Positions 3,001-61,963 of a stretch of 64,000 nucleotides of DNA are shown piece after piece. The notes under the pieces are model-generated. The model was not told the origin of the DNA. It ran no database searches and was given only the letters and a program-made list of their open reading frames with translations. How positions within the stretch are numbered: position 1 is the first letter of the stretch; each line of letters begins with the position of its first letter. Origin of the DNA: Candidatus Shapirobacteria bacterium (GTDB lineage: Bacteria > Patescibacteriota > Microgenomatia > UBA12405). Location of the stretch: positions 277,156-341,155 of the forward strand of contig JBAYIT010000001.1 in the NCBI GenBank assembly GCA_041665485.1, read 5' to 3'. A program made the position numbers and the translations under genes.

Positions 3001-6000
3001 AGCTGGGGGTGGCGACGGTAGATCCGGTTACGGGCAAACAAAGGCCAATAAAAGATATTAATGATGAAATTGCTCTTAAAAAGGGTACTGGGAGTGTGGG
3101 GATTGGGGAAGATGAAACTAAGAAACAAAATGATAGGGCTAAAGAATTTGGAACAGTAAGACGAAGCGGTGAGGAGAACAAAGAGTTGGAAATCAGACTG
3201 GATGGAATAAAAAGGGAATATGACGCGTTAAAGAGTTTAGGAATTGAAAGGGTAGCAGATACTAGTGGGAAATTACCAGCCTATGGTGTGTTTATGTCCG
3301 GAGCGATTAAGGAACTTGATAAACAGATGGAAAGCTATGGTTTGAGATATAACAGTAGTGATGGGATAGAGAAAAATGTGGAAGATTTGAAGGTGGCAAA
3401 GGCAGAAAAAAGAGACGAGGTAATCAGGTTGGCGGAGACGGCGGGGGTGGAGGGAGTTGATTGGAGTACTTTGACGACGACGGAGATCAAGAGAATGACT
3501 GTTGATAAAATTGCTGGAAATGAAGCAGACATTGTAAGGCAAAAAGCAGAAGCAGAGGCGGAGGCAAGAATTGCAACGATAGTGGGGCAAATTAGAGCCA
3601 TAAAAACAGACTATGTCCGGCCAGACGAATTGGATGAAAATGGGGCGAATGCTGATTTGGCAAAAGTGAAAGAAGAGAGAAGTGAATTGGTGGATCAGAT
3701 AAATGGAATTGATGGTGGTCAGAAGAAGGCAGATTTGGAAAAAATGACGATTGGAGATTTGGAAGCGAGGCTGGCCGATCGACAGGAAAAACTGACAAGT
3801 CTTAAGGCAGAATACAAAAGGCTGGCGGGAGAGGAAACTGGTGTGGGGGAGATACAAAAGTTGACAGGGCAGATAGGGAGTTTAGTGGCGACGAGAACTG
3901 GTTTGGAGACAACAGCCAAAATTAAGGGTATAACAGCGACAGTGACTGACGCTTTGTCAAATCCAGCGATTCAAGAAATGATTAATGATGATAATAATGC
4001 TGAGGCGGAGTTTAGAAATACGAGAAGTGGAGAAGGTTTTATGTGGAGAGATAGGAACAATGGAGAGTTGGAGGGAGATTATGAGTTTGAATGGAATAAG
4101 GAAAAAGAGGCCAAAAGACGGGAATTAAGAGCAGAGATTGCTAGGGTGGCGGGTGGTGAAGTGGCCGGGTTGGAAAATTTGACAGTGAAAGAGTTGGAAG
4201 TAAGGTTGAAACAGGAAGAACTGGTGGCGACAAGTCGGGCAAATTTGGTTCAACTGCAGGCAACATGGAGCGGTCTTGTGCCAGAGGCGGCTAGGTATGG
4301 ACGGGAACACGGAATAAGTCCTGACCAGACGGAAAACTCGTACAGAACGGCGATAACTGGTTTAAGGAACTGGATAGCAGAAGCAGAGAGGACGAGGCAA
4401 ACAACTTTAGGGAAAATTAGAGATTTGGATGGGGTGGTGGCAGTGGCAAATACAAACACAACTAATTTGGGTGTTTTGGATGAGGTTTTGACAACGGTGA
4501 AGAAAAATAATACTGATTTGATTGCTTTAGATAATGAGATTAAAAAATATTTGGGAGCGGATTATAAAACGGATAGAAGTCAGGGTTTAGTTAAGGCTTT
4601 GGAAGTGGCAGAAGCAAAACTGGCTGAAGTAAAAAGACAATGGAATGATTTGTGGACTCAAATTGATGAGATTCGTGGTGTGAGGACCAGTGACAAGGTT
4701 CGATTGGGCCAGAAAAATTTAACAACTTTGGGGAGGGTAAAAGAGTTGGCGAATACAAGAGCGTTACGGGCGAGTGAGGCAGAACAACAGAGGCAGGTAG
4801 AGGAAGTGACGAGGAATGAAACAAGAAGAGTTGCCTTGGTGGTGGAAGTAAGGAATATTTGGGGAGATGTGAGTTTGGAGCCGGATGGGTTAGAAAAGAT
4901 GACCATTGTTCAAGTGGGATTAGAGAAGGCTAAAGCCAATCAGGCCTTGGTACAGGCCAGGCAGGAGGCGACAAAAAATGGGGCGACGCCGACGGAGTTG
5001 GCTGGGGCGAAAAATATAAAAGCAATGAGGGATTTGGTGGCGAAAAAGGTGGAGGAGGCTACAATATTGGCGGATGAACAACGAAGGCAAGCCGAGGAAG
5101 TAGCAAGACAGGCTAAAGCTGAAGCAGATAGAAAAGCGGAGGAGGCTAGAGTGGTGGAAGAACAAAGATTAGCCAAAATTGCGGCGGATAAGCAATTAGT
5201 GGACCGGGTAATGGCGGAGGTAAATGGAATAGTGGTGACAACTGGTTCGAACCAGGATGAGACAAAAGAAGCCTTACAAGCGGCAGTAAATCGGTTGGTT
5301 GGAATTGATACTATAACTGCAAAAGGGGCAAATGATTTAATTAATCAAAAGAAAGCTTTGATAAAGAAAGTTGAAGAATATTATGAAGGTCAAGATGTAA
5401 ATGATGCACTGGTGACGGGAGTGGCAAGGGTGTTGGGGGTTGCTCAAGTTAACAATTGGAATACAAAACTGGGAGCTTTGCAAAACTATGTTGATGAACA
5501 GATGTTTAGTAATCCAACTTTCTGGCCGGATGTTGGCGAAGAAGTGGTGGTGCAAAAAATTGGTGAAAAATTGAAAGAATTGCTTGGCACTAGTGATCAG
5601 GTAATGGCAACAGAGATTAAAAATAGATGGAATACTAAATTAGTCGCGGAGAGAAGTCGTCGTGAAGAAATCAGAAGGGAAAACGAATTGTTTGCTCATA
5701 AGCAACAATATTTCTCTGGAGAAAAGGCAATTCCAAATTTAACAGACAAGGAAAAAGAATCGATCATGGATGCGGTGGATAGGAATGCGGTGGATACAAT
5801 AGTGGCGAGATTAAGGGTAGAGAAAGAATTGAAAAAAGCAATTGGAGAGGTGGTATCGAGAACCGGAGTAAATGGGGATTTGAAGGGACATTTGACTGAA
5901 GCGGATGTAAGGAAAGCAGAAAATATTGAGGCACTTAACCAAATGGTGGCGAAGGCAGAGGTAGCAAAAGGTTTGGCGGTGGCGGAGAGAGTGGCAGGAG

Positions 6001-9000
6001 GGGAATGGGCAGGGGAAAGGGGGAAATGGTTGAATATAACTAAAGGAAGGAATGAACTGGATATTGATTATATTAAAAAGGTAGAAAAAGCTGAAAGGAG
6101 GGTGGTTGTGGAGCAAGCCAACAAGATTTTGGCCGGATTGAATTCAGAGATGGCTAGGGAATTGGAAAGATACGTTGTGGAAAGAAAATCTATTCTTGAA
6201 AAAATGACAGCTGAAGGAGTTACTGTGGCAATTGGTGAGCATTTAGCTCAATACGCGCAGAGATGGTATTACCGAGATACTCCTGGATCTATATATCAGA
6301 CGGTGATAAAAAATATGAGAGACACCCCGGGAGAATTAGGCAATGTGTATGCCCTTTCGGTTGAGAGGGTGGTTGGGTCTCAACAACAAGCAATGATTGA
6401 CAACCAGCTGGCAAGGCTGAAAACAACTGTCGGAAAAGGGGTTGCGGCTAAAAGAGTGGCTTTGGGAGATGTTCATAGTGATGTGGAACAGCTTGCTCGT
6501 ATTCTTAGAGGTGAAGTCAACGTGGGAGCAGATTTTAAACCAGTGTTAGATAAAAGTAATAATTGGATCGGAGGAAAGACAGTTATTAGACTGACGGGAG
6601 ATTTGATTGATAAGTTACCGCCGGGGATGACAGGGATACAAGTTTTGCAGACAATTAGAAATTGGCAGAAACAGGCGAGAGATGCCGGGGGTGACATAAT
6701 CATTACCTTGGGGAACCATGATATTCATACAATTGCTATGGCAAATGGTGTATTGGAAGAACCGATGATTACCAGTGGTGTTGATATACATTTAATTTTG
6801 GAATTAAGGAAACCAGAATATGGAGACCTTTTAAATTGGTTTACCCAATTACCCTTGATAACTAAAAGTGAGGAGAGCGGAAACATTTACATACATTCAG
6901 ATACGGTGGCCTATTTGGAATATGGTGACACAATTGAGGAGATAGATCAAAACATCAGATCGATATTGACTACCGGCCGGGGATTGCCGGGAAAAATAGC
7001 ACCAACAAGTTATTTGCGTACCGATCCTGCAACCAAGGAAAGAAGTTGGGTGAGGGGGGTTTCTCCAATTGAAGCTTTAATGCACAATTTGACGGGCCGA
7101 AGGGGTGAATTTAAGGATCCAAATAATGTGACGAGATTTTTAACGATATTAGATGGTAAGGGAATAATCCATGGCCATAATCCTGGGGTTAGTTATGATG
7201 ATCCGAGGGTGATAAATGTTGATGCTGGGATGTCTTTGGGTATGTATAAACCAGGGGATGACCCAGGATTACAGAGAGGGCGAGCGATAGTATCAACAAT
7301 TTTGCCGGGTGGTGAGTTGAAGATAGATATCGAGAGAAGATTTGCCCAAGTTAAGATTTCGGATAAAGACTTGCCTGATGTGGCTGATTTGTGGCTAATT
7401 AAACCTACTTTAAGGCCGGAGAAAAACATTATTTTAGGGAGAAACGAAGGAGTAGATTTACCAGTAAATGATAGTAGAGTTTCTAGCAAACACGCGAGAC
7501 TAAGTCGTGATCTGGCTGGTTTCTGGTGGATTGAAGATAACTCTTCGACTAACGGGGTAGCAGTTTGGGAGGGGAAGTATTGGCGTGAATTAAAAAACAT
7601 TGACCCAGTGGCAAGAAACACTGGTTTAAGAGACAGGTCGAGGTTGGTTGATGGGTCGATAATATCGCTAAACAGAGATACGAATTTGTCGTTGTGGTTT
7701 CGGGTAAAAGTAGATGGTAATGGAGAAATTAGTTTGGAGCCTTACTCGAGTCAGCCACAACAGCCAGGTTTAGGTGTTGAGGCACCGGCAAAAACTAGTC
7801 AACAGGATGGGGATGTAGCAAAGAGTAATCTTTTGCAAGTGATGGCCCAAAATGCAGGGATAGAAGTTGGTTCGGTTGTTGAAAAAATGAACAATATGGC
7901 AAATGAAGCTCGTAGTGGTGGCTTCAAAAATTTGCCATCAAACTTAAATAATCAGAGCAACATAATCGAGATTGTTAATATGAATGCGGCCTTGGTGGTT
8001 TACTTTAAAGCTGATTATAGATCAAGAGCGGGTGTGGATTTAACTAAGCCGGTAGTTGTCGGGGCAACGGCGAATTGTTTTGATTGGCAAAAGGCTTATG
8101 TGATGGCCATTTCGGAAATTGGCAAACCAGCAAGTCAGCCAAGTGTGGCGCCGTCGGCAGCGCCGTCGGTAGCGCCAGCGCCGATAATTGTGCCACCGGC
8201 AGGAGATACTGGAGTTGTGTTGGGGGTTGATAGTAAAGGGAGAGAGGTGAGAATAAAGACGGTAAATGGGAAAGAGGAGGTAGTTGTTGAAAATTTGATT
8301 ATTAAACATAATTCAATTGGTACTGTTTTAGGAAATGGGACAAAATATGAGAAGTCGGTGGCTGGAGAACCAGGTGATGTGGTGGCGGTGAACGGAAAAG
8401 GGGAAAATCAGATTAGAGTTAGTTTTAGTAAAGACGGCAAGGTGGTGCAAGTAAAGGTGGGTGGGATAGTGGTGGAGAAAAAAGAGGCCAATGAGGCAAT
8501 TACTGTGGCTGATTTGGTAGTGAGAGAAGTAACTTTGAATACGGCGGCTGATCAAAGTGGAGTTAAAAAGGCAGTGACTAGGGCAAAAGCAGAATTAGAT
8601 AAAATTGATCCAAAAATAGCTAGTGAAGTGGAAAGTAAGCTGGGACCAATTAGAACCAGAATAGTAGAAATAGAGAATCATGTGGCAAGAGTGGAAGGGT
8701 ATTATGCGGGTAAGTCGAACATTGTGGTGGCAGAACAGGTGGCGAGGGTTTTGGGGGTGGTGGGAATGGATAAGGGAGATGATGTTTATGCGGTGGTGGA
8801 CGGATTATGGGGAGGGATAGAAATGGTACGAATTGAGGATGTGTCAACTGACACAAGCATAATTGCAAATATAAGAGGAGAGATAATGTCGAGGAGGTTA
8901 GGGATTAGTGATTCTCAAATTGTTGAACTGGCTAAATTTATCGCCGGAAATTGGACGACTCAAGTGGCGGCGGAGAGGGTAAGAAGAGCAGATTTAACAA

Positions 9001-12000
9001 AGGCTAAAACAGAATACTGGAGGGCGGAATCGGCTAAGTCAAATTTAGCGGCGGCGGCATTATATGAACTGGGGGGAGGGAGTTATGCGGTCAATTTGAC
9101 AAGCCGTTATCAAACACTAGACCAATTTAAAATTGCCGTGGAGGAGCAATTGCGAATTGCCAATTATCTGGTGGATGGTTATAAAACAGCAAATCCAGAA
9201 ATAACTGATGAGGATATTGAGTCGGCCTTTACTGGTTTTGGCACCAGTGGTTCAACCGCTTTTGCTTTTAAAAGTGTGATGAATGGTGTTGACGAAAGAG
9301 CAAAGGCGAGGGTGGCAGAGGCAAGAGTTAAAGCTTTACCAATAGAAGGGTTTTTGACAGTAGAAGAGGTTACGGCTAAAAAGACAGTTAAAGAGATAGA
9401 TGATTTGGTGGAGGAAAAAGGGCGCGAAAGAGATAGTTATATCGCAAAACAAAAAGAGGAGTTAAGGCAGGTGGCGCCATTAACTCAGGATGAAGAAAAG
9501 GCGATTGATGGGGCGAGTGGGAAAACAGCCATTGATAGAGAATTAGTTAAAATAAAGCAAGCAATAGCGACGAGGGTTTTGATTGAAGATCAGAAAAAGA
9601 ATCCGTTAGTAAAAGTGGGGAATGGTTATAAAAATAATAGTGGTAGGAGCATTAAATATCACACTACTGATAATCAAAAGACTTGGACGTGGGTAGCGGG
9701 ACAGGTAATTCCCGAAGAAACTTTAAAAAATAAAATAGTGGAAGTGGATGATGACCGAGTAATCTGGGTAAATGGTCAGGGAGTGGTGACTACCTACACG
9801 ATTGCTCTGACAAATGCCGATTACAAGCCATTGCAGGCAAAATTTTTAGATAAAAAGGGGAATGTAATAAAAGACAAGGATGGCAAGGTGGACTTGGATT
9901 CGAGTAAAGTGGAAGGGGTAGAGTCATATGAGGTGAAAGGTTCAGATGGGACAATAACAGTATTTCATGTAGCGAATGCTAAGTTTCCACAAGGCGTAAA
10001 GTCAAAAAGAGAATTGGTGGCTAATATGGCTTGGGTGGTTAGCCGGACAAGAGAAGTTATCGGGAATCAGGCAAAAGATGTCTCTAATGAGGTGTTGTTA
10101 GTGCCTCAAGAAGCAACGAGTTTTGGAGGAATGGCGCCAGGAGTGAAGAGTGAAGATGTTAATTCGGTAATGGTGGTTGTTTATGATTTGGTTAAGACGC
10201 AATCAGTTCTGGCTCATGAATTGGGGCATGAACATTTTGGTAGTTCTCCAGTAACCGATATTAGTGAGGGGGTGGCAATTAATGTGTCGATGGAAGCAAT
10301 TGGAGGCGGTGTTGATCAGGAACGGATGGATGGAATTTTAGATCAGCCGTTTGATGTGAAGGGGGAGGGAGAGGGAATAATAACTTCGACTGGTTTGGCT
10401 ACTTTGGATAAAGCCACAGAGAAGGATAGATGGCTTTATACTTATAAAAGTGGAACGTTTTTGATTAGGTCCTTGATTGAGGTGGTAGGAGATAGAAGTA
10501 AAGCTTGGGAAATGGTGGGTCGATTAATGGAGGCTGGCCGAAAGAAGTTTTATTGGAGTGAAGGATTGGTGGTCACGAGAATTTCTGGGGGAGCAACAGT
10601 TGATTATGCCACGGCAATAGATGAATTGTTGGTTGACGTAGGATTTAATGCAGAGCAGAGAACAGCAGTTTACGAAAAACAGAGTACGTATTTATACTTG
10701 GGTAATAAAGCTCAAATTAAATACGAAGAGTCCGAGGTGACCAAAAAAATTGGAACAAAACCAGGAAATGGAGGTTATGTGATCAGAGGAATGTTTTTAG
10801 CCAAAGAACACGTTGAAATGGTTAGAACTAGGAGGGGAGGATTGTTGTTGATATCGAATAAGTCGAAGATGGGGACACGTGTTTTTAGGGAAGGGCAATG
10901 GCAGGAAGTTCGGGTGGGAGGCGATCCGACAGAGTTAAGGGAAGGGGATGTGGTAAAACTGGGATCAATTGGAAGTTCGGTGTATTTTAAGGTGGTAGAT
11001 CTTTATGGTCGATTGGACCTAAAAGAAATTGAGGCATATGGGGTGAAGGGGAAAGAAAAAAATAAAGAGGAAAGAGTTTTGGGGGAAGATCCAGTGGTTA
11101 CAGAATATAGGCGAAAGTTATGGGATAATTATAGATATGAGGACCCCCATGAATGGAGACTAGGTATCTTGAGGACGGCGATGAACACGAGAATTAGTGA
11201 TGTGACGAGAATGAGGGCACGGGCGGCCAAATATGGAGTGGAAAACGATATTAGTTGGGCTGGTAGAACGACGGAAGAAATGAGGGCGGATTTGGAAGCA
11301 AAAGTTGGGCCAATGGTGGTAGCATTAAACGCTCGGGCGAAGGCGGTGGGATTGGTGGATATTAAAGATGAAGAGACAGTTGAAGATTTTGTAAAAAATA
11401 TTAGTGAAATTGAACGTTATATCGGTCTGTATAAATTATTGAATAAGGGGTCTGCCGACGGATTGAATTTTGGAGTTGAGGGATTTCAACAATTATCCAC
11501 GAGGCTAAAAGCTAAGATATGGGAGTTGGCTCGACAAAGAGGGGTGGCTTCAAATAAATTTGTCACTTTTTCAATAGCGACAGCCAAAGAGATGTTAAAT
11601 AGAATTGATGTGCTTAATGCCAGGGCGGAAAAAGTAGGATTAGCTCCGAAATCTTCGGATGTTAGTGAGATTGGTTATTTTTATGATTTGGAGAGAACAG
11701 AGTCGTTAATAAAGTTGTTGAAGTTTATGGGGAAGACTGATATTGGTGTTGGTAAATTGATGGAATCTGGTGAATTATACGAGAGACTGATTGGTTTACT
11801 TGAGGAGAGGGCAAAAGAATTAGGTTTGACTGACCTTGGTGACGTTTCGGATGAGAACAAAGTTTCAATGGTCAGGGATAGATTAAATGCCGGTTGGGTG
11901 GAGAAGGCCCAGAAAGAGGGTTTGACAGTGACGGTGGCGACAGGCGATTGGCCGGTGGATATGGAAAGAAAATATGAAAGTGCTAAGGAGCAATTTTTAA

Positions 12001-18000: not shown

Positions 18001-21000
18001 GAAAATTTGAGTTTGGGGGAGCTATTGAGACTCCGAGTGGTTCGGGGGCGAGAAATGGCGGAACAGCCTCTGCTGGCCAAAATATACGGAAGTCGGGACA
18101 GGATGTTGTTGTCAGTTTTTATGACACTAAAGTTAGAATTCGAAGGGACAGGGGCCGTTATTATTTATATAACGATGGCCCCTCTTGGATGAATGTCGAT
18201 GTTGCTGGTCGGAATGAGCTTGTAATTGTGTTTTCGAGTAAAGTTTATGAATTGAAGAATGGGGACTTTTTCTATGATCAGTACGGAGTCGGGTATAGGT
18301 TTGTTGACAATGGTGGCGTGGCGTATTTGTTGGATGCTCAAGGTAACATAGTGTGGGTGTTTGATCAGGATCAGAGTAGGAGGAGTGACGAGGTAAGGAT
18401 TGAAACTAATAACGTGGTTTTTGATTTGCCATCTTTGGGGATTCTTGCCAATATTTTTGTTACTAATACCGATGCTAGTGGAGTAGTGAAAATTTACATA
18501 GACGAGACAACTACAGGCACGATATATGTTAAAAAGGAACAAATAGGGGGATTTAGTGTTAAGCAAAACTATCCCCCGGGAAGTTATCAGTTGGGTGATG
18601 GTGATGAGGTGACAATTGCCGGGGTAGTGTATACGGTTATAAATCAGCCTCAGTTGGGGACAATAATCATGGGTTCAGATGGAAAGCAATATAAGATTAG
18701 GGATCCATGGGGTGGCAAGTCGATGAGAGATAAGGCAAGAGAAGACAGAGAGCCGATTTCTCTTAAGTTCGCCGGTATTTTGGACAAGATGAACAAAATA
18801 GACGCCATATTATTGTCAATGGGGGTGGCTGATTATGAGAGCAAGATGGTTCAGGTAGAAGCAATAGCTGATCGTTTAGAGATTGATATGGCTGACGTGG
18901 AAGCCCAAATTGGCGGATGGTTTCGAAATTATGGAAATTATTTGGGGCCCAATGATGGTATCAGGCAAAGCATGGAGACAATGAGCCGTGATCTGAAACA
19001 GAAGCGTTTAAATTTGGTGGAACGGAAAAAGATGCTAGCCAATATTCAAAAATTTGCAATTAAGTGGAAACTTGGGATAAATCATGGTCTCGCTTATGAG
19101 ACTATGATCGGAAATTTGGGGAAACTGGATACGAAGTTGGCAGAGGAATATCGTCGCGGTCTTACAGATATTAGAACAGATATGGTGGCAAATGGATTTA
19201 TACTGAGAAGTGGGATGCCGGGTAGTGGTGAAACTAAGGCGGAGATTTTGAAATCGGTTGAAAGTGATTTGGTGGCAATTGATAGTTACATTGGAGTGGT
19301 AATGAGAATTAATGAATTAAAGAGCGGAAGGGCTAAGATCGGGGAATGGGAAATCGAGGCTGGGGAGGTTAGGCGATTAGGGCAGATTTTAGTGGCGGAG
19401 AGGACGGCGACTAGACCACTATCATCCTCGATGGTTTTTGACATACGGGAGAAGATGCTAAATGCTTTGAACCAATTAGTTGCTGAAAACGTGGCAAAGG
19501 CAAGGGGTTTAACCACTAAAGATCGCGACCAAATACTTTCATGGGAGGCGAGCCTGAAAAAAAATGTGTCAAATGTGCAAATGATGGAGGTCATAATTCA
19601 AGCGGAGGAGATGCAGGGGAGAGTGGGAGAGAGTAAAGGTTCAATTTCTGGAGTTGTTGGGGGGAATTGGCGTAATAGGTTGACGAAGATAATTGCCGAA
19701 AATTGGCGAAGATTAACTGAAAACTATTCCAACCTTTGGATTGGAAAGATGGTAGCTGATACAACCCAGGTAATTGAGAATGAGAAAAAAGCTGTGTCGT
19801 TTGCTAGCGAGGAGGAGGCAAGAAGGTGGGTTGTCGAGAGAATAGAAAATAGAATGTCTGCCTATTTGGACTCGCCTCCCGGAGGTTTGAGTTGGTTGCA
19901 GGGGCAGATAGAAAGTGGCGAGACATCGGTGCTGGCTAAAAGATTGGCCGGGGTGGTGGTTGCCACTTTGCAGGGGGCGAGGGGTGATTTATCGAAACAG
20001 ATTTTAGGGGCGGTGTCGTATTCATCGAAACCGGTGGATTACTCGCAGTGGTCTCAAGCAGCGAAAACTAATATCTCAATTCAAGTTGAGGAGAACTCTT
20101 TGAGAGTAGCAAGATTTCATCCATATGTGCGTCAAGGTAGAAGTAAAGAGGATAGGGCGGCAACGTTAGTAGATAGCCGGGGTTATGCAATTGGCCAGGT
20201 GATAGCAGATGGGCATTCGCGGGATAAGAAGGCTGGTCAGTTAGTGGAACAAGTAGTGGCCAATGTTCAGTCTAATTTGAAAAGATATGATTGGACGACG
20301 ATGGACAGAAAAGGAGCGGAGAGGATACTGGTGGGAATCTACAGTCAGATATCTTTAAATTTTGCATTTGAAGAGAGGGGTGCGGTACTTCAGGTGGCGG
20401 TAGTGACGACAGATGGTTATGTGGTAATGAATGTAGGTGATCCGACATTACTAACAGTTGATGTCAGAGGCAGGATAGTAGAACACGGAGGTGGAGATTG
20501 GGCCACGGTAGCCGAGGCAATGCAGAAATATGATAAGGCCATTTGGGATCGATGGGTGCCAGATCCTTTTTCTATTGATACCCGAGGTGTGTGGCGGGAC
20601 GATAGGTTGTTGATGGTGGCCAACACGATCGGAGATGATGCTAGCGCGAGGCGGGGTATTCAGATAGTAAGGGAATATTTGGCCAAAAACCAGGGACGAA
20701 TGAATCCTGAATTAAGGAGGATTTTGGATGGGGCAGTGAATTATAGAATGGAATATTTTGGGAAAGACGAAGTGGCAGGGGTGATAATAGGCTCGGATGC
20801 GGTGGTAGATAACTCGAAGAAGACTGGTGGTTTTGAGACAGTGGTGAAGAAAAGTTTGAGCCAGAATAGTGAAGACGTTATTAGTCGGATGGTGGGAATG
20901 ATAAGTCCGGACGTGTTGGGTAAGAGTGTTGATGATTTGTCGGTGGGCTACCTGAAGTGGAGTGAATATTTCGGTGGTGTTGGAAGTGTTGAGGTAACTT

Positions 21001-24000
21001 TGGATACAGCAAAAACGGGACAGATAAAGATAGGTAATGTAGTAGTAGGTGGGGGTCAAGGTAGCCAGACGAGTGGATCCGCGGCGGCGAAAGTAGTTTA
21101 CGAGCCAATAATTATTGGTCGGAACGAAAATGATTTGGATGGGATGTTTAGGTTTAATCAAACAGTGTCGCGCAGACAGGCAAATTTGACATTAGAGGGT
21201 GGCGATTTATTTATTGATGATGCTGGGTCGATGAATGGGACTTGGGTGAATGGTGTCAGAATCACAGGAAGGACAAAGCTATATTCTAGTGATGAAGTGA
21301 AATTTGGCTTAGGTTCACAAGAGGTGGTTTTACGGTTTGGACTGGAGGGGACGACTTGGGTGGCAGTTCAAAAAACCACCGGAAAAAGATATGTGTTTAA
21401 TTTTCAAAAAGCTGGTTTCCAGCCCAATGGTTGTTCTGATTGTTCGGTGGTGCGACAGACGGTGGAGAAATTGGTGGCGAAGGCGAAAGGTTTTTATGAG
21501 GCGGGCAATTCGGCAGAATTTCAAAGATTGATTGATTTGGCTTATGGTTATAACAATAATCACACTTTTGTGAATGAAGTAATTCAACAATATGGCATGG
21601 CGAATATTAGTTACGTGGAGGCAATAATGAAGAGGACAGCGGAAACAGTTAAGTATGCTCAAAAGATGGCGGCGTTGTCTTTGGAAAAAGTGGACGTGGT
21701 TAGGGACGGAGAAGCGCTAACAGGGGGAGCATTAGCAGAATTGGATGGCATAGAAAGTGATGTTAAAGCTAAACAAGGAGAATTGGGAAAAATTGAAGTA
21801 GTCAAACAAAGTGAAGAGGAACAGGCGGCAGAGGTAAAGGCAATTGACGAGAGGCAGAGGGCACTTGACGAAAAGAAAAAAGCAGGAGATGCTAAAACAG
21901 AACAACAAAAGAGTGAAGAAATGAAAGTAGTCGAGGATGAAGTGGCGGTGGTGGAGGAAATGGAACCGAGTGTGAAAGTGGTTGAAGAAAGTGATTTGGG
22001 CATAAAATCATCGGAATCGGTTAAAACAACTAGAGCCAGGATTATTAAAGACGGAAAGGACTTGGGGTGGTACATCGTTAAAGAATTTAGGTCGAGCGAG
22101 GTGGTACAAGACAATTTGGATGATTATCAGCTTTTAAAAGAAAAAGGATTTCCGGTTCCAGCAGAGGTAATGGTAATTCCAGGAAGGCCGAATTCAATAG
22201 CAGTTACCGACTTAACTGAAAACGGAAAATATGAAATTTATTCATATAACAATATTACTGACGGGGCCATTAAACCAAATATTTCTAACTTTGACGAAGT
22301 AAAACGGCAATTTAGAGACATAGCTCAGAGGGCGGATGACAACGGATGGTTGATGACCAATGATTCATATTTTTTAGTTCTTGACCCAATCACATATGTT
22401 GGAAGGGTAGTAGTGGGAGATTTTGGTGGGGCAGTGATGACAAAAGAGGAGGCAGTAAAACAATACGGATATTTGAAAAGCGACACTAGTTTGAAAATGG
22501 TGGAGAACTTTATGTTGCCGACCTTGGCGAGTGTGTTTAATGGAGGGGAAGTGGGAGCAGTGGCGGCGGCGGAATATAAACCTCTTGGTTGTTCGGATTG
22601 TGCGGTGTGTGATGTGACAGTTGATCAGATAATTACTCAGGCTAACGACGAGGCGATTAAGGGCAACGATCAAAAGGCTTTGGAAATATTACGAGGGTTA
22701 ACGGCCTATGCCAATAGTCACGTCTACGACAATAAGGTGGCTCAACGGCTGCAAAACTTGAGGATTGCGGTGGCAGAAGCAATTATCGCCAGAACATCAG
22801 AGACTCAAAGTTATGCTTTAATGCAGGCCAACTTGGCAATTGACGAAATAGAGAGAGTGTTGAAAGAACCAGGGTTGACCACGGGACAGATAATAGGTCT
22901 GGTTCATGAACGGGAGGAAGAAGTGAAACCGGCGATAAAAAAGGTGCGGGCGATTAGAGTGAGTCAATCGAAATTGGGTGAGATGTTTGAGAGTAGATTG
23001 AGAAGGGCGGAAATAAGTGTGGCTGGAGTAGTGGGGACGGAGGTGGAGGCGGTTAGACAGAGGATGGAAGCGGGAACGGAAGAATTGAGTGTTGTTTTAG
23101 AAAAAAAGTTAATGTCAGTGGATAGAGTAATCGAGCCACAAATAGGAGAGCATTTATTGGAGGCTAAAAATCCAAAGATGTTTTTGGCAGTTAAACGGCT
23201 GTTGAATTTTTCCAATCAAAACGAAAGATTTTTGGATGACAACGAAGGGGTGGTGGTTGGTTTGCAAAAAATTATGGACGATTTAACAATAGTGGTGAAC
23301 AAGGAAAGAGTGGCGGGCAAGAAAAAAGCTATGCCGGCGGTTAAAGTTTTTGTTCAAGTGGGGGGAGAGCCAAACGCCTTTAGTTTGCCGGATGGGTCGA
23401 TAGTGGTGACTCAGTCATTAATTAATTTAATGAGAACAGAGGATGAAATTGCGGCGATTTTGGTGCATGAATTTTCTCATTTTGAGGACCACTTTATGGA
23501 CTGGCGGGAAGATATTTTTGATAAGGGGGGGTTGGGCGAAGAGGTGGGTCAACCATTAGTAAGTAGATTGCAGGAGCATAAGGCTGATTACGTGGGAGCG
23601 AGGTTAAAGAAAATTGGTTTTAATGGCATGGCGATGACGTCGGCATTGGAAAACTTGCAAATTTATGTGGCTGATTTCGAAAAAGCCCAAAATGAAACGA
23701 TTCAGAAGGACTGGAGAAGAAAAATATGGAAATTTTTTGGCATAAAGACAGTTGATGAGTGGAAAGCGGGAACTGATGTGGCTCATGGGTCGATTGCTAA
23801 TAGAACGGCCGGCCAGGAGGTAGGTAATAAATTTATTGAGCATGGGGGGGAGGCAGTGGCGCCAAGAGAAGTGCCAAGTGGCTGGAAGGGTAAAGCGGGG
23901 GTGGATGAGATTTATGGCCATTTAGTGGGTGATAATTATGGTCCGGAATGGGAAAAAGCATTGAGGTCGGCGCCAAGCGAGGTGGTGCGGCAATACATGG

Positions 24001-27000
24001 AGAGTTTTACTAAGGAATGGTTGGTGGAAATGGCGAATCAGAAGACTTATTATGATGGCCGATTTACAAGGCGGAAGGATAAAAAAGGAGTAGAGCGGCT
24101 GGTTCAAACAGTATATGATGATCGCCTTTTTGAACAATTTAGTCAGTATCAGTTACAAATGCTGAAGAAGTTTGAGAGTTTGGAGAAATTGATGGCAGAA
24201 AGGATGGAAGTAAGTGGAGAGGATGAAGGAAAGATGATTAGACTGATGACAGTCATCAAACCAGGTCCACAAGGAGGAGAGCTTTATTCGCAATTATTGC
24301 ATCAACTGAAGGGGGAAATGATGCCGGGTAAGGCGCAGGAGGAGGGAAAAAAGCTTTTGGCTAGAATTGGAGTGGAAAATGGCCAAATGTCGCAGGAATA
24401 TGTGGCGAGGATAATTGATCAAAAATTTTGGGGAGAGAGATTGGCTAGAGTGGGATTAAGTGGGGCAGTTAACTTCCGTCCGGGGCCAATTATCAATAAG
24501 ATTTTTGATGAAAATCTTTGGAATGAAGCCAATGATATAACGGCATTAACTAGAATTTTGGATTGGGTGTTGGTTTTACCTATGTCTGATTATTACCCGA
24601 GCGTATCGATGGAGAAAAAGGTTTTAGGAATGATGTTAACTTTGGCGTTAAAAGGACCAACGCAGGGAGAGTTAGTGTTTAATGAAGAGGTGGCCAAGAG
24701 GCTGGTGGAGGCGGGCTTACGGGTGTTGGAAGCCAATCCAAAATTAAAACAAAGTGAGTTGTATTACGATATTTTGGGTGACAATTATAATTTCAGAGGA
24801 GCACCTTTTTTGGTAAAGTTGGCTTATAAGAAGTATTTAGTGGCGGGATGGGGAATAGTTGACCTGTTTACAGCAGAAGAAGATTTTTATATTGCGGTTT
24901 TGAATCAAGATGAAGTGGCCTTGCAAAAAGTTTTAGTGGAACATCCGGATGCATCTTTGAATTACATAATGGCGGCGGCAGGCAACGGGGTTGGTGAGGA
25001 AAGACAGAAATGGTTGATGGCCGAAGTTAAAAAGTTTTTAGAAGGGCCGCAGTTTGATGGGGCGGATTGGAACGTGATGCATCCGGAAGAATCTAAGTTT
25101 ATGTTTAACTATCAGGCATCGATGGTTTTAGTTGAGGGCTATGAAGAAAGGCTTCGAGTGGCGGATTTAGTTCAGAATAAATATGTTGAGGTGATGATAA
25201 GGATGGATGATTCGAAATTGGGTAATTTGGTTTTTAAAATTTTTGAAATTCAGAGTATGTATGGGATTAATAAGGAGAAGTATCAGGAAAATGTCGAGAA
25301 AGTTTTTGGCTTACCGGTTTTTGATTTAGTGCAAAAAAGGATATTGGCCGAGAGTGGAAAGACAGGATATTGGGGTCAGCCAAAATACTTATATCGGAGA
25401 GCGGTAGCATTTTTGGAGGGTACCAGACAGATGTATGGGGGTGGGGTAGATTCTACCACTGTGGCAAACTATCCATTTTTTGGGGAGAATGCTTATGAAG
25501 CTAAGTTTTTGCAGCCATTTATTGAGCTGATGCTCAAGCAAGTAACAGACACTTACCCGGCTGATTTCCCCAAGACGACGACCACGGCTTTGAAGTATTA
25601 CCAAATAATTAAGGACTTACCGAAGAGTGATGAAAGAAAAGCGTTGCTTGACAGGGCGGTAGAGATGATGGTTCAACAAATGCCATTTGATGATTTGCTA
25701 AAGTTTGTTCAGGCAGAAATAGCCGATGGCAATGCTGAAATTGGAATTAAGTTTTTGGAGAATCGGGTGCAGACAAATTTAGAGTATCAAAAAGTTAAAG
25801 AAGCTTTTGGGAGTGATTTTACCAAAATGTTAACTGGCGGGGCGGTGGCGAAAGGGTCGGTGGGAGTGCTTTTGGATACGTTGATGAGTAATGTTCTTAC
25901 CGGCGAACAGACTTTTGAATTTTTTGAAGCGGCGCTAACCGGAGATGATGCCAAACTGAGATATTTTATGGGTAAGGCGTTTAGTGAATATCTTGGGTAC
26001 AACCAAGATGGAATAATGGTGCACGAGGATGGTTCAATTACGGGGACAGGGGTGGGAAATTTACCTATTTTTGAGGACTTGATGGCGGAGCTTTACAGTA
26101 TGTCGAAGATGCAAAAGACGGCTTTAATTTACAAAATTTTAGCTGATGATAGCTCTGGGATATTAAAACATGAAGAATTACATCCGAGAATTGCCTCTAT
26201 GATGCTTTCTAGGGTTGAAGGTGAGCCCGGGATGAAAACGTTTATGAATAAGGCCATTTTGGCGGTGTTGAAACAGAGAAGGGGGAGGACAAAAGTGGCT
26301 TTGGGGGTGTCGAGTAGTTTGGCAGACATCTTTTTAATGAAGCCGAAGCAAGTGGCAAGTAATGACTATGCAGTGAAGAGAATTATCGAAGGGAATTCTA
26401 ATTACAACGTTCTAAAAGATACTACCGGATGGTTGGAAGAGCAGAAAAAATATTTTTTGAGGGTATTGGGAACAAAAAAAGATGATGTAATGAAAGATCC
26501 GAGGAATAACGATCCGGTGGTGGTGGAATTGAGAAATGAGGTGGCAGAGATGTACAAAACAATGTATCAACGGATGGGGGTGGTTGAGAACAGTGGCCAA
26601 CAAACTTTGGGCTTTGAAGAGCAAAAAGTGCCAGCGACTAAATTTGTAGTTGAGATCGGCAAAGCCTTAGGAGCGTTGGGAGTAAGATTTTTGCAGGTAA
26701 TGGGCCAATACTATGAAATTACCCCGGAGATGCGAAACGACTTTCAAGCGGTGTATGACAGTGCGTCAAGTTTGTTTATGGCTAATGCTTTCCAGACGAC
26801 GGAAATGGGGATAGCGGCACTTAAAGCGGAAGCAGATAAATTAGAAGCTGATGGAACCAATCCTCAAAGAGTAGTGTGGTTGCGAGGGGAGGTGGCGGCA
26901 ATGGAAGAAAGGCAAAGGACAATGTTGGTAGTGAGAAAAATTGGCGGCGGGTCAATTAATACTGCCTATGAGGTAACTAAAATTGGGGGCGGGGAGCGCG

Positions 27001-30262: not shown

Positions 30263-31222
30263 ATGAGTAAGGATGATTTAGACCCGAAACCAACCAAGGA
30301 AGAAAAGGTGGTGGAAAAAAGTTTGCGACCACAAACTTTATCTGAATTTATTGGCCAGGAGAAAACTAGACAACAGCTTAGGATTTTTATTGAGGCGGCC
30401 AAAAGGCGAGAAGAGGCAGCTGATCATATTTTGTTTTATGGGCCGCCGGGATTGGGAAAAACAACCCTAGCGTTTTTAATGGCCAAGGAAATGGGAGCGG
30501 GAATTAAAATTACTTCCGGGCCGGCCATAACTCGGGCGGGGGATATAGCGGCCATTCTTTCCACCCTAAAAAAAGGTGATTTTTTGTTTATTGATGAAAT
30601 TCATCGGTTAAACAAGGCGGTGGAGGAAATGCTATATAGCGCCATGGAAGATTTTGCTTTAGATATAATTTTGGGCAAAGGGCCGTTGGCAAAAACTGTT
30701 AGATTAAATTTACCTAAATTTACAATTGTGGGAGCAACAACTCGAATTGGAATGTTGTCGGGGCCACTGCGGGATCGGTTTGGTTATGTTCAACAATTGG
30801 ATTTTTACGATGATAATGAATTAAGAGAAATTGTGGAAAGAACGGCTGATGTATTGAAAGTTAAAATAGAGAGGGAAGCGGCGGGGGAGATTGCCAGGAG
30901 GAGCCGAGGGACGCCACGGGTGGCTAATAGGCTTTTGCGGCGGGTGCGCGATTTTGCCCAGGTCAACAGTGATGGATTAGTAACTTTGAAGGAAGTAAAA
31001 GAGGCCTTAGAAATGCTTGGGGTGGATGAAATGGGCTTGTCTGATGCTGACAGGCGGTATTTGGATATAGTCAAAACGCAGTATGGCGGGGGGCCAGTGG
31101 GAGTAGAAAATATCGCTGCGGCTTTGACGGAAGACATCGATACTATAACAGAAGTTTATGAGCCGTTTTTGATGAAAAAGGGGTTGGTGAAGAGAACGCC
31201 CCGCGGACGAGTAACAAATTAG
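30263..31222 (+). CDS. ruvB: Holliday junction DNA helicase RuvB (AAA+ ATPase)
   Basis: [19 protein letters not shown]...[16 protein letters not shown] (Walker A), FIDEIHRL (Walker B), C-terminal winged helix. Confidence 0.95.
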
Positions 31223-36512: not shown

Positions 36513-36575
36513 GTAAAATGGATTAATGGACTACAAAATTGGTTTTTTTGGGGTGAAGAGTTGGGAGAGGGAGGC
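36513..36575 (+). pseudogene. Orphan copy 1 of the 5' end (start codon + ~17 codons) of the 2-hydroxyacid dehydrogenase gene found intact at 41574
   Basis: gtaaaatggattaatggactacaaaattggtttttttggggtgaagagttgggagagggaggc ~ 41561-41625 (MDYKIGFFGVKSWEREA); diverges afterwards. Confidence 0.7.
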
Positions 36576-36633: not shown

Positions 36634-36927
36634 ATGAGATTTGATATTTCAACTGATTTTGAGTGGGATGCCGGTAATGAAGACAAAAATTGGCTAAAGC
36701 ATCAAGTTTCAAAGTCGGAATGCGAAGAGATTTTTTTTGACCCAGAAAAAATCGAATTAAGAGATTCAGAGCATTCTAAAATAGAAGACAGATTAATCGT
36801 TTTGGGAAAAACCAAAAAGGAAAAATTATTGTTTGTGGTTTATACCAGAAGAAAGGACAAAATTAGAGTTATTTCGGCAAGGACGGCCGATAAAAAGGAA
36901 GAAAAATTATATGAAAAAAATGCTTAA
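36634..36927 (+). CDS. brnT: BrnT-family ribonuclease toxin (DUF497)
   Basis: MRFDISTDFEWDAGNEDKNWLKHQVSKSECEEIFFDPEKIELRDSEHSKIEDRLIVLGKTKKEKLLFVVYTRRKDKIRVISARTADKKEEKLY. Confidence 0.7.
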   Translation: MRFDISTDFEWDAGNEDKNWLKHQVSKSECEEIFFDPEKIELRDSEHSKIEDRLIVLGKTKKEKLLFVVYTRRKDKIRVISARTADKKEEKLYEKNA

Positions 36928-37171
36928 ACTACCAAAATTTAAGAACGAGGACGAAGAAAGAGATTTTTGGGCCAAAATTAGTTTGGCGGACTATTTTGAG
37001 GCTAAAGATTTTCAAAAAGTAAGCTTTCCTAATTTAAAGCCAACGTCGGAGGCAATTTCTATCAGGATACCTCAATATATGTTAGTAAGGATAAAAGAGA
37101 GAGCAAACGAGATAAACGTGCCGTATCAGACACTGATTAAAACCTATATTCAAGCGGGATTAGTGGCGTAG
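36911..37171 (+). CDS. brnA: BrnA-family antitoxin (RHH/CopG-like)
   Basis: MKKMLKLPKFKNEDEERDFWAKISLADYFE...SIRIPQYMLVRIKERANEINVPYQTLIKTYIQAGL; overlaps brnT by 17 nt. Confidence 0.65.
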   Translation: MKKMLKLPKFKNEDEERDFWAKISLADYFEAKDFQKVSFPNLKPTSEAISIRIPQYMLVRIKERANEINVPYQTLIKTYIQAGLVA

Positions 37172-37413
37172 TGTAAAATGGATTAATGGACTACAAAATT
37201 GGCTTTTTTGGAGTTAAGAGTTGGGAGAGGGAGGCGATTGAGAAAGAAATAATTAGATTGCCTTCGTTTGGGGTGGGGATATTTGAAAAAGAAGTCCAGG
37301 ATGATGTGGAATTGTGGTTGATGAGAGAGTTCTTTCCTGGTGGGAGTGTTCCTGTTTTAAGTGGGCAGGAAATGTCGGTGGCAAAAGGTGTGGAGGAGTT
37401 GTATGGATTGTAG
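37165..37413 (+). pseudogene. Orphan copy 2 of the dehydrogenase 5' end (~45 codons then divergent)
   Basis: ggcgtagtgtaaaatggattaatggactacaaaattgg...gatgtggaatt matches 41553-41705 incl. 20 nt upstream of ATG; ORF MDYKIGFFGVKSWEREAIEKEIIRLPSFGVGIFEKEVQDDVELW then unrelated tail. Confidence 0.7.
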
Positions 37414-43049: not shown

Positions 43050-44090
43050 ATGAAACCAATATTGATCTGTGGCGGTGTTGGAACTAAAATGTGGCCGGAG
43101 TCGAGACCAGAGAAGCCGAAACATTTTTTGCCGTTGATTGATGATAAGTCGCTTTTTAGGTTGAATTATGAAACTTTGTTGAAAAAATTCAAGCCGGAAG
43201 AAATTTTTGTACAAACCACCGAATTTCAAAAGGGGTTAGTGAAGACTGAGGCACCAGAGATCCCCGAAAAGAATATTTTTTTGGAGCCGGAAGTAAGAAA
43301 TACTGGTCCGGCAATTGGACTGACGGCGGCCTTGTTGTCAAGAATGGGTTATGGGGATGAGCCGTTTGTATTGATTCAAGTTGATGATTTAAGAGAACCC
43401 GATGATAGATTTTTGGAAATGATAGAAGTGACGGGAAAGATGGCATTGGAGAGCGATAAATATATAACTGGTGGTTTTAAGCCAGAGAGAGTGGTGCGGG
43501 GGGTTGATTATTTGGTAAAAGGGAGACTCCTTTCTAAGGAGAATGGAATTGTGGTTTATGAAGTAGCAGATTATATAGACAGAACTGAAACGGAAAAGAT
43601 TGAGAAGTATCTTGGTTCAGAGGATTTGCTGTTGCATACAAATCACACAACGATGACCCCAAATAATTATCTGAAAATGTACCGTGAATTAAGAAGTGAT
43701 TGGTATGAACCTTTGGCGGCAATTGTTGCTGGTGGTGATGTTAATGAAAACTTTATGAAGATGACGAAGGGGCCTCAAGAAGAGGTAACACCGACGATGC
43801 ATCGAAGTGGACGGTCTATTGTGGTGGAGATACCATTTAAATGGGTGGATTTTGGAACATGGGAATCGGTAGCAATTTATCAAGAGACAAGAGATAAGAA
43901 GCCAGAGTTAAGAGCTAAGATTGAAATAGAAGCAAGTAATAATTTTGTCAGGATGAGTGATCCGAATAAGCCGGTGGCGTTGATTGGAGTCAGTGATTTA
44001 GTGGTGGTGGATACGCCAAATGGATTATTGATTTGTAAAAAAGATCAGTCGGGAAGAGTGGGTGAAGTAGTGAAAGCATTAGAAGCATGA
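43050..44090 (+). CDS. Sugar-1-phosphate nucleotidyltransferase, mannose-1-phosphate guanylyltransferase-like (paralog 1)
   Basis: MKPILICGGVGTKMWPESRPEKPKHFLPL (ICGGxGTxxWP signature), NTGPAIGL. Confidence 0.7.
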   Translation: MKPILICGGVGTKMWPESRPEKPKHFLPLIDDKSLFRLNYETLLKKFKPEEIFVQTTEFQKGLVKTEAPEIPEKNIFLEPEVRNTGPAIGLTAALLSRMGYGDEPFVLIQVDDLREPDDRFLEMIEVTGKMALESDKYITGGFKPERVVRGVDYLVKGRLLSKENGIVVYEVADYIDRTETEKIEKYLGSEDLLLHTNHTTMTPNNYLKMYRELRSDWYEPLAAIVAGGDVNENFMKMTKGPQEEVTPTMHRSGRSIVVEIPFKWVDFGTWESVAIYQETRDKKPELRAKIEIEASNNFVRMSDPNKPVALIGVSDLVVVDTPNGLLICKKDQSGRVGEVVKALEA

Positions 44091-45112
44091 ATTTAGTATT
44101 AATCTGTGGGGGGACGGGGACAAAGATGTGGCCGGAGTCAACTCCCGACAAACCAAAACAGTTTTTGCCGTTTATAGATGGCAAGTCGACTCTAAGAGTT
44201 AATTTTGAGCGGTTAGCCAAATTTGTCTATCTTAATAAAATTTGGGTACTGACGACGAAGGATTTGGCGCCGTTGGTAAAACTGGAGTTACCGGAGGTTG
44301 ATGTAGATCATTATGTGATTGAACCAGCCAGGAAAAATCATGGGCCGGCAATTGGTTTGTTATCGACAAGATTAGCCAAAATTGACCCAAATGAGCCATT
44401 TATGATTGTCCAAACGGATGTAATTCGGGAGCCAGAAACTGCTTTTCGGGAGATGGTGATGTTGGCCGAAGAGGTGGTTAATCGAACCGGTAAATTGATT
44501 ACTGCTGGTTATAGGGCTAAAGAAATGGTGGCAGGGGTAGATTATATGGAAATTGAGGAATTGAAAAGTAATCATCATGTGACTTATGGGAAGGTTAAAA
44601 AGTGGTTAACTAGGGACAAAGTTGTGGAAATTAAACGGGCAGTAAAATTGGGAAAGGCCTATGTTCATGCGACCCATATTTGTTGGAGGCCAGGGTTGAT
44701 GTTGGAAGCAATAAAAGAACTTAAACCGGATTGGTGGAATTGTCTTAAAGACGTTTTGGAGGCAGAAAGCCAGTATCTAAAGATGGAGCCGGGGTCGATT
44801 GAAAATGAAATTATTAGTCACAAAATTAAGGGAGGTTATGTGATAGAAATGCCATTTGAATGGCATGACTTGGGGACGTGGGCGTCTGTGGCAATTTATC
44901 AAGAGACAAGAGATAAGAAGCCAGAGTTAAGAGCTAAGATTGAAATAGAAGCAAATAATAATTTTGTTCGGGTGAGTGATGAAAAAAAGCCAGTGGCATT
45001 GATTGGAGTCAGTGATTTGGTGGTGGTGGATACGCCAAATGGATTATTGATTTGTAAAAAAGATCAGAGCGGGAGAGTGGGGGAGGTGGTGAAGGAGTTG
45101 GAAGGATTATAA
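44087..45112 (+). CDS. Sugar-1-phosphate nucleotidyltransferase, mannose-1-phosphate guanylyltransferase-like (paralog 2)
   Basis: MNLVLICGGTGTKMWPESTPDKPKQFLPF; last ~75 aa almost identical to paralog 1. Confidence 0.7.
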   Translation: MNLVLICGGTGTKMWPESTPDKPKQFLPFIDGKSTLRVNFERLAKFVYLNKIWVLTTKDLAPLVKLELPEVDVDHYVIEPARKNHGPAIGLLSTRLAKIDPNEPFMIVQTDVIREPETAFREMVMLAEEVVNRTGKLITAGYRAKEMVAGVDYMEIEELKSNHHVTYGKVKKWLTRDKVVEIKRAVKLGKAYVHATHICWRPGLMLEAIKELKPDWWNCLKDVLEAESQYLKMEPGSIENEIISHKIKGGYVIEMPFEWHDLGTWASVAIYQETRDKKPELRAKIEIEANNNFVRVSDEKKPVALIGVSDLVVVDTPNGLLICKKDQSGRVGEVVKELEGL

Positions 45113-60329: not shown

Positions 60330-60363
60330 TTAATTTGAGAAGTGGTGTTAATCTAGGTTTCAG

Positions 60364-61738: not shown

Positions 61739-61963
61739 TTGGTAAAATGCTATACTAAATTAGTTATGACAAGCGAGGTTGTTGGGCAAGGGAGACTGCC
61801 CAACTTGTTTTTTTTGGAATTAAGAGAAAGAATTGGTGTTCTTCGAAAAAGGATTCCAAGTAGGGCAGATATAAATAGATGGCTTGATGTTGAGGTTGGG
61901 GGTCAAATGGGAAAAGTTGAAGATTTGCTTCCAAAATGGATGTTGCGGAGGCATTTTAACTAA
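61739..61963 (+). CDS. Hypothetical small protein (weak)
   Basis: 74 aa ORF, ATG start. Confidence 0.25.
   Translation: MVKCYTKLVMTSEVVGQGRLPNLFFLELRERIGVLRKRIPSRADINRWLDVEVGGQMGKVEDLLPKWMLRRHFN

Follow-up and report, generated by a model that had tools for sequence, protein, structure and literature searches.

We report a predicted phosphatase module at 6450–7745 within a giant open reading frame (ORF) of a Candidatus Shapirobacteria bacterium; the stretch of DNA that was analysed, referred to here as the window, comprises 64,000 nucleotides, and the module joins a metallophosphoesterase domain to a forkhead-associated (FHA) domain in a single chain. On balance, and from sequence and structure prediction, we favour the reading that this is an FHA-docked phosphoprotein phosphatase cassette. 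The analysis directly supports the identities of the domains, the integrity of their key residues, the repetition of the same design further along the polypeptide and the family context. The fusion of a phosphatase to an FHA domain is itself a known principle and nothing here is categorically new; what appears to be new is a PPP/ApaH-like metallophosphoesterase in the FHA-fused role, the reuse of the FHA domain after different enzymes and the setting in a giant protein of the Patescibacteria.

The module was originally predicted, from the letters of the DNA and their translations, as a calcineurin-like phosphatase directly followed by an FHA domain at 6440–7715. The frame in fact begins one base on, at 6441, and the FHA fold extends to ~7745, 30 nucleotides past the predicted end. 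The motif set quoted in that prediction is present, in the order given there, in the in-frame translation of 6441–7715, and we add to it the motif IHSD, which it had not listed (Table 1). A Pfam domain search, suggested along with the prediction and applied here to 620 excised residues of the module and to the whole protein, gives significant matches to Metallophos and to FHA, both of which, judged by their scores, lie far beyond chance. The Metallophos profile (PF00149) is matched by the excised segment with 27.4 bits, against a gathering threshold of 21.5 (E = 5.6e-6), over profile positions 4–187 of 191, a score that places the domain in this family. The phosphatase half reaches E = 2e-41 in a phmmer search run exhaustively against 1.84 billion representatives.

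An alignment of 41 sequences shows no loss of metal ligands. All nine invariant columns are kept (D2139, H2141, G2182, D2183, G2220, N2221, H2222, H2281 and H2375), the ligand set D-x-H/G-D/G-N-H/H/G-H is complete (D2139, H2141, D2183, N2221, H2222, H2281, H2373 and H2375, all at positions that are invariant or nearly so) and GNHD has its catalytic His intact. The phosphatase and the FHA domain were modelled with AlphaFold2 (AF2) as separate segments, of residues 2120–2429 and 2425–2575. The phosphatase model has a predicted local distance difference test score (pLDDT) of 87.9 and a predicted template modelling score (pTM) of 0.86, and a Foldseek search with it returns 73 PDB hits at E<=1e-3, of which all 50 listed are PPP-fold enzymes, namely protein phosphatases, ApaH and the PnkP phosphatase domain. 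The top hit is the Shewanella cold-active protein-tyrosine phosphatase (1v73/2z72, E = 2.4e-12), followed by Escherichia coli ApaH (E = 3.5e-12); later neighbours include calcineurin, RLPH2, lambda phosphatase, PP2A, PP1, the PnkP phosphatase domain (14th), PP5 and Legionella WipA/WipB. By sequence the order at the top is reversed, with ApaH (2dfj/9ojd, E = 4e-6) nearest in the PDB, narrowly before the Shewanella phosphatase (E = 4e-5). The calcineurin-like call thus stands on the Pfam score, the conserved ligands and the PPP-fold matches of the model: the domain is a member of the calcineurin-like metallophosphoesterase superfamily, in an ApaH/PPP-like clade whose members are nucleotide hydrolases as well as protein phosphatases.

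Table 1. Features of the giant ORF in the window. Residues are counted from nucleotide 54, as in the original prediction, so that residue n begins at nucleotide 51 + 3n.
Feature	Residues	Nucleotides	Strand	Basis or remark
Giant ORF, 3' part		3–29645	+	9,880 codons in window, open at left edge
Helical extension, ~115 residues	2019–2132	6108–6449	+	Co-conserved with phosphatase in giant homologues; blastp/phmmer alignments
PPP-superfamily (ApaH/Shelph-like) metallophosphoesterase	2133–2425	6450–7328	+	Pfam, phmmer, alignment, AF2/Foldseek
GDVHSD	2138–2143	6465–6482	+	
GDLIDK	2182–2187	6597–6614	+	
GNHD	2220–2223	6711–6722	+	
IHSD	2280–2283	6891–6902	+	
HGHNPG	2373–2378	7170–7187	+	
NVDAG		7215–7229	+	
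Linker, ~30 residues between folds		7329–7421	+	AF2 models, low confidence
FHA domain 1 (FHA1)	2457–2564	7422–7745	+	Pfam, 28-sequence alignment, AF2/Foldseek
FHA1 GR	2462–2463	7437–7442	+	
FHA1 SSKH	2477–2480	7482–7493	+	
FHA1 STNG	2498–2501	7545–7556	+	Followed by VDGSII
Zincin-like region	3293–3400	9930–10253	+	HELGH (10215–10229); sub-threshold Peptidase_M60 and reprolysin only
FHA domain 3 (FHA3), degenerate	~3565–3650	10746–11003	+	Pfam 18.5 bits (below gathering), jackhmmer converges on FHA, alignment
PP2C-type phosphatase	6693–6965	20130–20948	+	PP2C_2 profile; EDR, DGHS, GSDAV, DDLSV in order by eye
FHA domain 2 (FHA2)	7019–7100	21108–21353	+	~55 residues after PP2C; Pfam 47.7–49.4 bits, E = 2e-12 to 6e-13
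GC[ST]DC module, copy 1	7100–7210	21351–21683	+	Follows FHA2
GC[ST]DC module, copy 2	7500–7595	22551–22838	+	
Peptidase_M48 core	7752–7811	23307–23486	+	HEFSH (23466–23480); Pfam
Protein-kinase-like region	8958–9200	26925–27653	+	IGGGSINTAY glycine loop, VYKIL, HSDIHIGN...VID catalytic loop (27492–27515)
GC[ST]DC module, copy 3	9330–9419	28041–28310	+	After kinase-like region

The second half of the module is the FHA domain. The Pfam FHA profile (PF00498; gathering threshold 20.7) matches FHA1 with 34.9 bits in the excised segment (E = 2e-8) and 47.3 bits in the whole protein (E = 3e-12). In a 28-sequence alignment the phosphothreonine-binding residues are all canonical (G2462-R2463, S2477, H2480 and S2498-T2499-N2500-G2501); the domain also carries a 13-residue insertion, LKNIDPVARNTGL. 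The model has a pLDDT of 79 overall, with the core above 90, and adopts the FHA beta-sandwich, the top 50 Foldseek matches all being FHA domains (best ArnA, 5a8i, E = 8e-6); the FHA domain of the Arabidopsis phosphatase KAPP (1mzk) is among the closest PDB sequences. The FHA call made from the motifs is borne out in each of these respects, and FHA1 is, from its sequence, a canonical FHA domain and a predicted phosphothreonine reader. A phosphatase tethered to such a reader in one chain is accordingly what the sequence predicts, with the key residues of both domains in place. The spacing, given originally as about 60 residues, needs correction: from GHNPG to GR the distance is 84 residues, and the folded domains lie ~30 residues apart.

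An argument that this pairing is a deliberate unit comes from the same polypeptide, where a second phosphatase of unrelated fold also precedes an FHA domain, at 49 bits. The PP2C_2 profile matches the excised PP2C segment with 26.1 bits (gathering 24, E = 7e-6), falling to 19–22.6 bits, below gathering, in longer pieces; no match was found for this region among PDB sequences, and the word-indexed homologue search with the PP2C-FHA2 region found nothing. In the 28-sequence alignment FHA2 keeps the GR, Ser and Asn, with the conserved His replaced by Gln. FHA3 is degenerate and has lost its phosphothreonine contacts, the Arg, Ser and Asn being replaced by Thr, Ala and Met in the same alignment. 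A single chain thus contains two or three instances of the enzyme-then-FHA design, and the three catalytic folds in question are unrelated to one another.

In the reading that we favour, FHA1 would bind a phosphothreonine mark on a partner protein, or elsewhere on the same giant polypeptide, and by docking there would hold the phosphatase beside nearby phospho-sites, which the phosphatase would then remove. Candidates for the docking partner are the giant protein itself, phosphoproteins belonging to the cell and proteins of a host. We infer a phosphoprotein, rather than a nucleotide, as the substrate and the FHA domain as the docking element, together with the compartment in which the module would act. 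The logic would be that of the plant protein KAPP, with a PPP-type catalytic domain in place of the PP2C-type. Since the enzyme-then-FHA pairs are accompanied by a kinase-like domain and an M48 peptidase, the giant protein probably assembles or edits a phospho-dependent protein complex. The original prediction had gone on to suggest a self-targeting phospho-switch, and here the support is partial, since the evidence leaves room for more than self-targeting, which is one option among several: in known phosphatase-FHA proteins such as KAPP, the FHA domain docks the phosphatase onto another phosphoprotein. That prediction had also overlooked the repetition of the cassette, the ApaH/PPP-like clade, the lack of conservation of the FHA domain in homologues and the exported look of those homologues.

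In function the cassette would most resemble KAPP and the bacterial fusions of FHA with PP2C, in which, as here, a protein phosphatase is covalently joined to an FHA domain. In Arabidopsis, KAPP begins with a membrane anchor and its FHA domain docks the phosphatase on phosphorylated partners. The cassette is nonetheless not a member of this group, because its catalytic fold is PPP/calcineurin-like and not PP2C, so that 6450–7328 falls outside the KAPP-type PP2C-FHA class; it also runs in the order phosphatase then FHA and is embedded in a multi-enzyme protein of 11,461 residues. A true PP2C-then-FHA pair (20130–21353) lies 4,500 residues downstream in the same giant protein. Joining a phosphatase to an FHA domain is an established means of directing it to phosphorylated partners, and the fusions known to us use PP2C. 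Fusions of FHA with SpoIIE/PP2C are documented in bacteria, for example Sorangium cellulosum sce0876 (PMC2887360).

The catalytic domain itself shares its fold and two-metal site with the Shewanella enzyme PPI (1v73/2z72, the 'Shelph' prototype), lambda phosphatase and PrpA/PrpB. Like the Shewanella-type enzymes it has GNHD, the His ligands and, in motif II, the second Asp, but it is only 18% identical in sequence, and GDVHS and GDLIDKL depart from GDxHG and GDxxDRG. Known bacterial-like PPPs are stand-alone proteins of roughly 220–340 residues, whereas this one is fused to an FHA domain; to our knowledge the former have been described without FHA domains.

Several observations weigh against the cassette reading. 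The first concerns the PPP signatures, which have been defined as GDXHG, GDXXDRG, GNH(E/D) and, in the bacterial type, (I/L/V)D(S/T)G (PMC535813). The domain carries the third as GNHD at residues 2220–2223 and, at the site of the fourth, VDAG (residues 2389–2392), which keeps the Asp and Gly with Ala for Ser/Thr where relatives have VDGG or IDGG. The strict signature fails at the other two: GDVHS has Ser2142 for a near-invariant Gly, the giant-homologue domains reading GD[IVM]HGD, and GDLIDKL keeps both Asp residues with Lys2187 for the phosphate-binding Arg and Leu for Gly, where the giant-homologue domains bear the canonical GDxxDR. Lys at the Arg position is found in one further member of the alignment (P0040, GDVINKGP).

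The second concerns the family. The phmmer search described above, which is profile-free, gave 892 matches, the best of them phosphatase domains within giant proteins of 2,232–7,303 residues. About twelve giant proteins share the phosphatase plus its upstream extension, at 27–33% identity over residues ~2000–2420; by both blastp and phmmer, alignments with three of them (P0002, P0003 and P0004) begin at residues ~1993–2100, upstream of the phosphatase, and the alignments with giant relatives end before FHA1. In none of the ~12 does an FHA domain directly follow the phosphatase; two of them (P0007 and P0008), which on this point speak for the cassette, have an FHA domain ~300 residues upstream of the shared phosphatase. 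Among the 150 best matches none covers both halves of the module, and no Pfam FHA domain was found among the best 120 stand-alone relatives listed. The pairing is recent and is not an obligate feature of the family. The third is that no Hanks-type kinase was found in the window, the kinase-like regions all being sub-threshold. Finally, should the protein lie outside the cell, as is suggested by its homologues, the cassette would have no obvious pool of phosphoproteins unless it were delivered into another cell. Other searches with the module add little: the word-indexed homologue search gave only one weak eukaryotic metallophosphoesterase, a metagenome scan gave only ordinary 380-residue metallophosphoesterases (L001–L003), and scans of genome contigs and of viral contigs gave no relative.

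To these must be added the position of ApaH as the top PDB sequence match and its sub-threshold NCBIfam match, which keep a nucleotide substrate alive as an unlikely alternative. The metallophosphoesterase would then act on nucleotides or nucleic acids, as an ApaH/ALPH-like Np4N hydrolase, an RNA-decapping enzyme or a Pnkp-like end-healing phosphoesterase, and the FHA domain would merely recruit it to a phosphorylated scaffold, in the way that the FHA domain of mammalian PNKP recruits a DNA 3'-phosphatase to phospho-XRCC1. Such recruitment of a phosphoesterase (PNKP being also a kinase) to a phosphorylated scaffold is described for mammalian PNKP, APTX and APLF (PMC2655680), although PNKP itself combines a HAD-fold DNA 3'-phosphatase with a P-loop kinase, so that homology to the cassette is limited to the FHA domain. 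The NCBIfam matches of the phosphatase domain are all sub-threshold (ApaH, PrpE and Pnkp), and stand-alone homologues also match PrpE and bacterial Pnkp; Foldseek places ApaH second and PnkP among the neighbours, as given above. The domain differs from ApaH and ALPH1 in being fused to FHA; it shares with ApaH the helical-insert motif LLNW..Q.PL, and its change of Arg to Lys in GDxxD[R/K] is typical of the ApaH-like 'Alph' enzymes (PMC535813), one of which, TbALPH1, is an mRNA decapping enzyme (PMC5491325). Against a nucleotide substrate, the hallmark of ApaH and Alphs, in which the second Asp of GDXXDRG is swapped for a neutral residue (PMC535813), is absent: the sequence is GDLID, and Asp2186 is retained as in protein phosphatases, which is why we favour protein-phosphatase-like chemistry. 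The scores lie far below the ApaH equivalog cut-offs (NF001204, 33.6 against 176; TIGR00668, 21.7 against 222.85), the giant-homologue domains carry the canonical GDxxDR, and elsewhere in this protein another FHA domain is paired with PP2C, a bona fide protein-phosphatase fold.

A different alternative, which we hold to be similarly improbable, accepts the chemistry of the phosphoprotein phosphatase cassette and moves it into another cell. The giant protein would be exported and delivered by contact, and the cassette would dock on phosphothreonine proteins of a host or prey and erase Ser/Thr/Tyr phosphorylation, with the PP2C-FHA, zincin and kinase-like modules acting alongside, by a logic like that of MARTX and polymorphic toxins or of Legionella WipA/WipB, which have the PPP fold and are among the structural neighbours of our model. 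The exported look of the homologues would change where the phosphatase-FHA module acts. In eleven of the twelve giant homologues the N-terminus opens with one hydrophobic helix or a signal peptide, after which comes Q-[DE]-x-R-x-x-A, and one (P0016) carries a pretoxin-HINT domain that exceeds its Pfam gathering threshold (33.9 against 27.7). Another (P0008, residues 1775–2613) is collinear with residues 1–865 of the ORF in the window (33% identity, E = 1e-104), so that the N-terminus of the giant protein is probably homologous to its own. Giant proteins from candidate phyla radiation (CPR) bacteria are reported to be, for the most part, membrane or surface proteins, tied to host attachment (PMC8080830, PMC13059738). 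Cys makes up 0.09% of the giant protein (54–29645) against 0.89% in 24 neighbouring ORFs (29655–63323), a ten-fold depletion that would fit an exported protein, though it is not common to all homologues, in which Cys ranges from 0.1% to 3%. Judged from the N-termini of these homologues, the giant family of Patescibacteria is probably exported.

Export of this particular protein nevertheless rests on the homologues, as its own N-terminus of ~1,580–1,600 residues lies outside the window, and the 9,880 residues within it contain no transmembrane segment and, by Pfam, no domain for secretion or translocation, no autoprocessing protease and no HINT domain. Although the protein resembles MARTX, the pretoxin-HINT polymorphic toxins and giant CPR surface proteins in its very large size and its strings of unrelated enzymatic modules, it differs from these groups in that no repeat-in-toxin or adhesion domain is present in the part seen either. 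No relatives were found in viral contigs, and PADLOC, run on ten tiles of the giant protein, gave zero defence-system matches, which leaves an anti-phage system unsupported.

Extended to the whole protein, and somewhat more doubtful for it, this line of thought would make the giant protein a contact-delivered, multi-effector kit by which an episymbiotic CPR bacterium sabotages phospho-signalling, a suggestion prompted by the N-termini of the homologues, the pretoxin-HINT domain and the depletion of Cys. The N-terminal region would serve as anchor or export signal, and within the host cell the zinc peptidases, the kinase-like domains and the two phosphatases tethered to FHA (PPP and PP2C) would be at work, with the FHA domains seeking out host phosphothreonine. 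If true, no host-directed effector system acting on Ser/Thr phosphorylation would have been described in the Patescibacteria before it.

Very improbable is a weakened or dead phosphatase that forms, with the FHA domain, a double phospho-binding adaptor in a giant scaffold, since, despite the two altered signature residues (Ser for Gly in GDxHG and Lys for Arg in GDxxDR) and the loss of binding residues in one of the three FHA domains, FHA3, from which domain decay is seen to occur in this polypeptide, this His-poor protein (0.66%) has kept all its metal ligands together with the catalytic His and Asp, the Lys retains the positive charge and is both found in P0040 and usual in Alphs (PMC535813), and bacterial PPPs with changed motif residues can remain active (PMC2887360).

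The giant ORF to which the cassette belongs is a long open frame, as originally described, but is truncated by the left edge of the window, there being no in-frame stop in nucleotides 3–53. The gene call on the source contig is 11,461 residues (ENA ERZ27249449:k141_1025756, of 411,674 bp), which places the gene start ~4.8 kb to the left; this contig was matched exactly through the RuvB protein (30263–31222) and is identical to the window over 20263–41222. A JGI contig from another sample (JGI 3300037810) matches at 99.84% identity across 11.8 kb, including the last 888 codons of the giant gene, and the 3' end of the gene has therefore been assembled independently. The gene lies upstream of ruvAB and adjoins housekeeping genes (ruvA, ruvB, pyrG, Mur ligase, FemAB, DegT and nucleotidyl transferases), and PyrG is ~50% identical to many Patescibacteria genomes, with nothing closer. 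From this sequence context the gene is assigned to the chromosome of a bacterium of the Patescibacteria/CPR without a close GTDB representative, and a phage or plasmid origin was rejected on account of the neighbouring ruvA, ruvB, pyrG, Mur ligase and FemAB genes and of PyrG. Of ten giant relatives looked up, three (P0004, P0007 and P0016) are named as Patescibacteria/Beckwithbacteria. His in the giant protein amounts to half of the 1.29% found in the neighbouring ORFs, and the histidines are concentrated at the catalytic motifs.

Several further features of the giant proteins were noted. The block of residues 1–865 (3–2650 of the window), which is the best conserved with another giant protein (P0008), has no Pfam match whatever. 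The motif Q-[DE]-x-R-x-x-A follows the hydrophobic helix in five homologues (P0002, P0007, P0008, P0011 and P0018), for example as QEIRSRAAS and QDIRQQAS, and could serve Patescibacteria surface proteins as an export or processing signal particular to the lineage. A module of ~90 residues that opens G-C-[ST]-D-C is present in three copies and is also found in the giant homologues P0003 and P0018, in the latter directly after the phosphatase; seven of the nine cysteines of the giant protein, in the part seen, fall within these modules, which are possibly small metal-binding or spacer domains. The kinase-like region has only sub-threshold matches (UbiB, ABC1, APH and Fructosamin_kin, E = 1e-4 to 0.02; alignment with the CK2 glycine loop, E = 0.1), and its kinase-like character, with a catalytic loop akin to the UbiB/ABC1 and APH families, is suggestive only. 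A further kinase-like candidate at residues 7300–7510 (VVGDFGG) is not claimed, as it yielded only dodecin/PTB noise and a jackhmmer search without relatives.

Elsewhere in the window, GC skew is ~+0.4 in nearly every 2-kb bin of 1–64000, an extreme strand asymmetry that is reflected in the third codon positions of the giant ORF (31.8% G against 8.4% C). The minus-strand genes for EamA (45210–46082) and a Hsp70/MreB-like protein (61956–63323) are still plus-strand skewed, at +0.22 to +0.42, so that the skew is a property of the DNA strand and not of coding alone. A 63-nucleotide direct repeat (36513–36575 and 37173–37235; 95% identical, spacing 660 nucleotides) flanks a BrnT-toxin/CopG-antitoxin pair (~36634–37171) and has the look of a small mobile cassette or of an insertion site that was duplicated. 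Two adjacent paralogous genes of the NTP_transferase/ManC type occupy 43050–44090 and 44087–45112, and a cell-envelope cluster (56144–61449) includes a Mur ligase (56719–58155), a DegT aminotransferase (58142–59323) and FemAB (59313–60329).

Organisms of this kind have tiny genomes, yet ~34 kb are devoted to this single giant gene. The excised module, at ~450 residues, is predicted to fold well. In this uncharacterised family of giant Patescibacteria proteins, the repetition of the design points to a general use of FHA domains as 'address labels' for enzymes; if the family is exported, such cassettes would be candidate tools with which an episymbiont manipulates its hosts.

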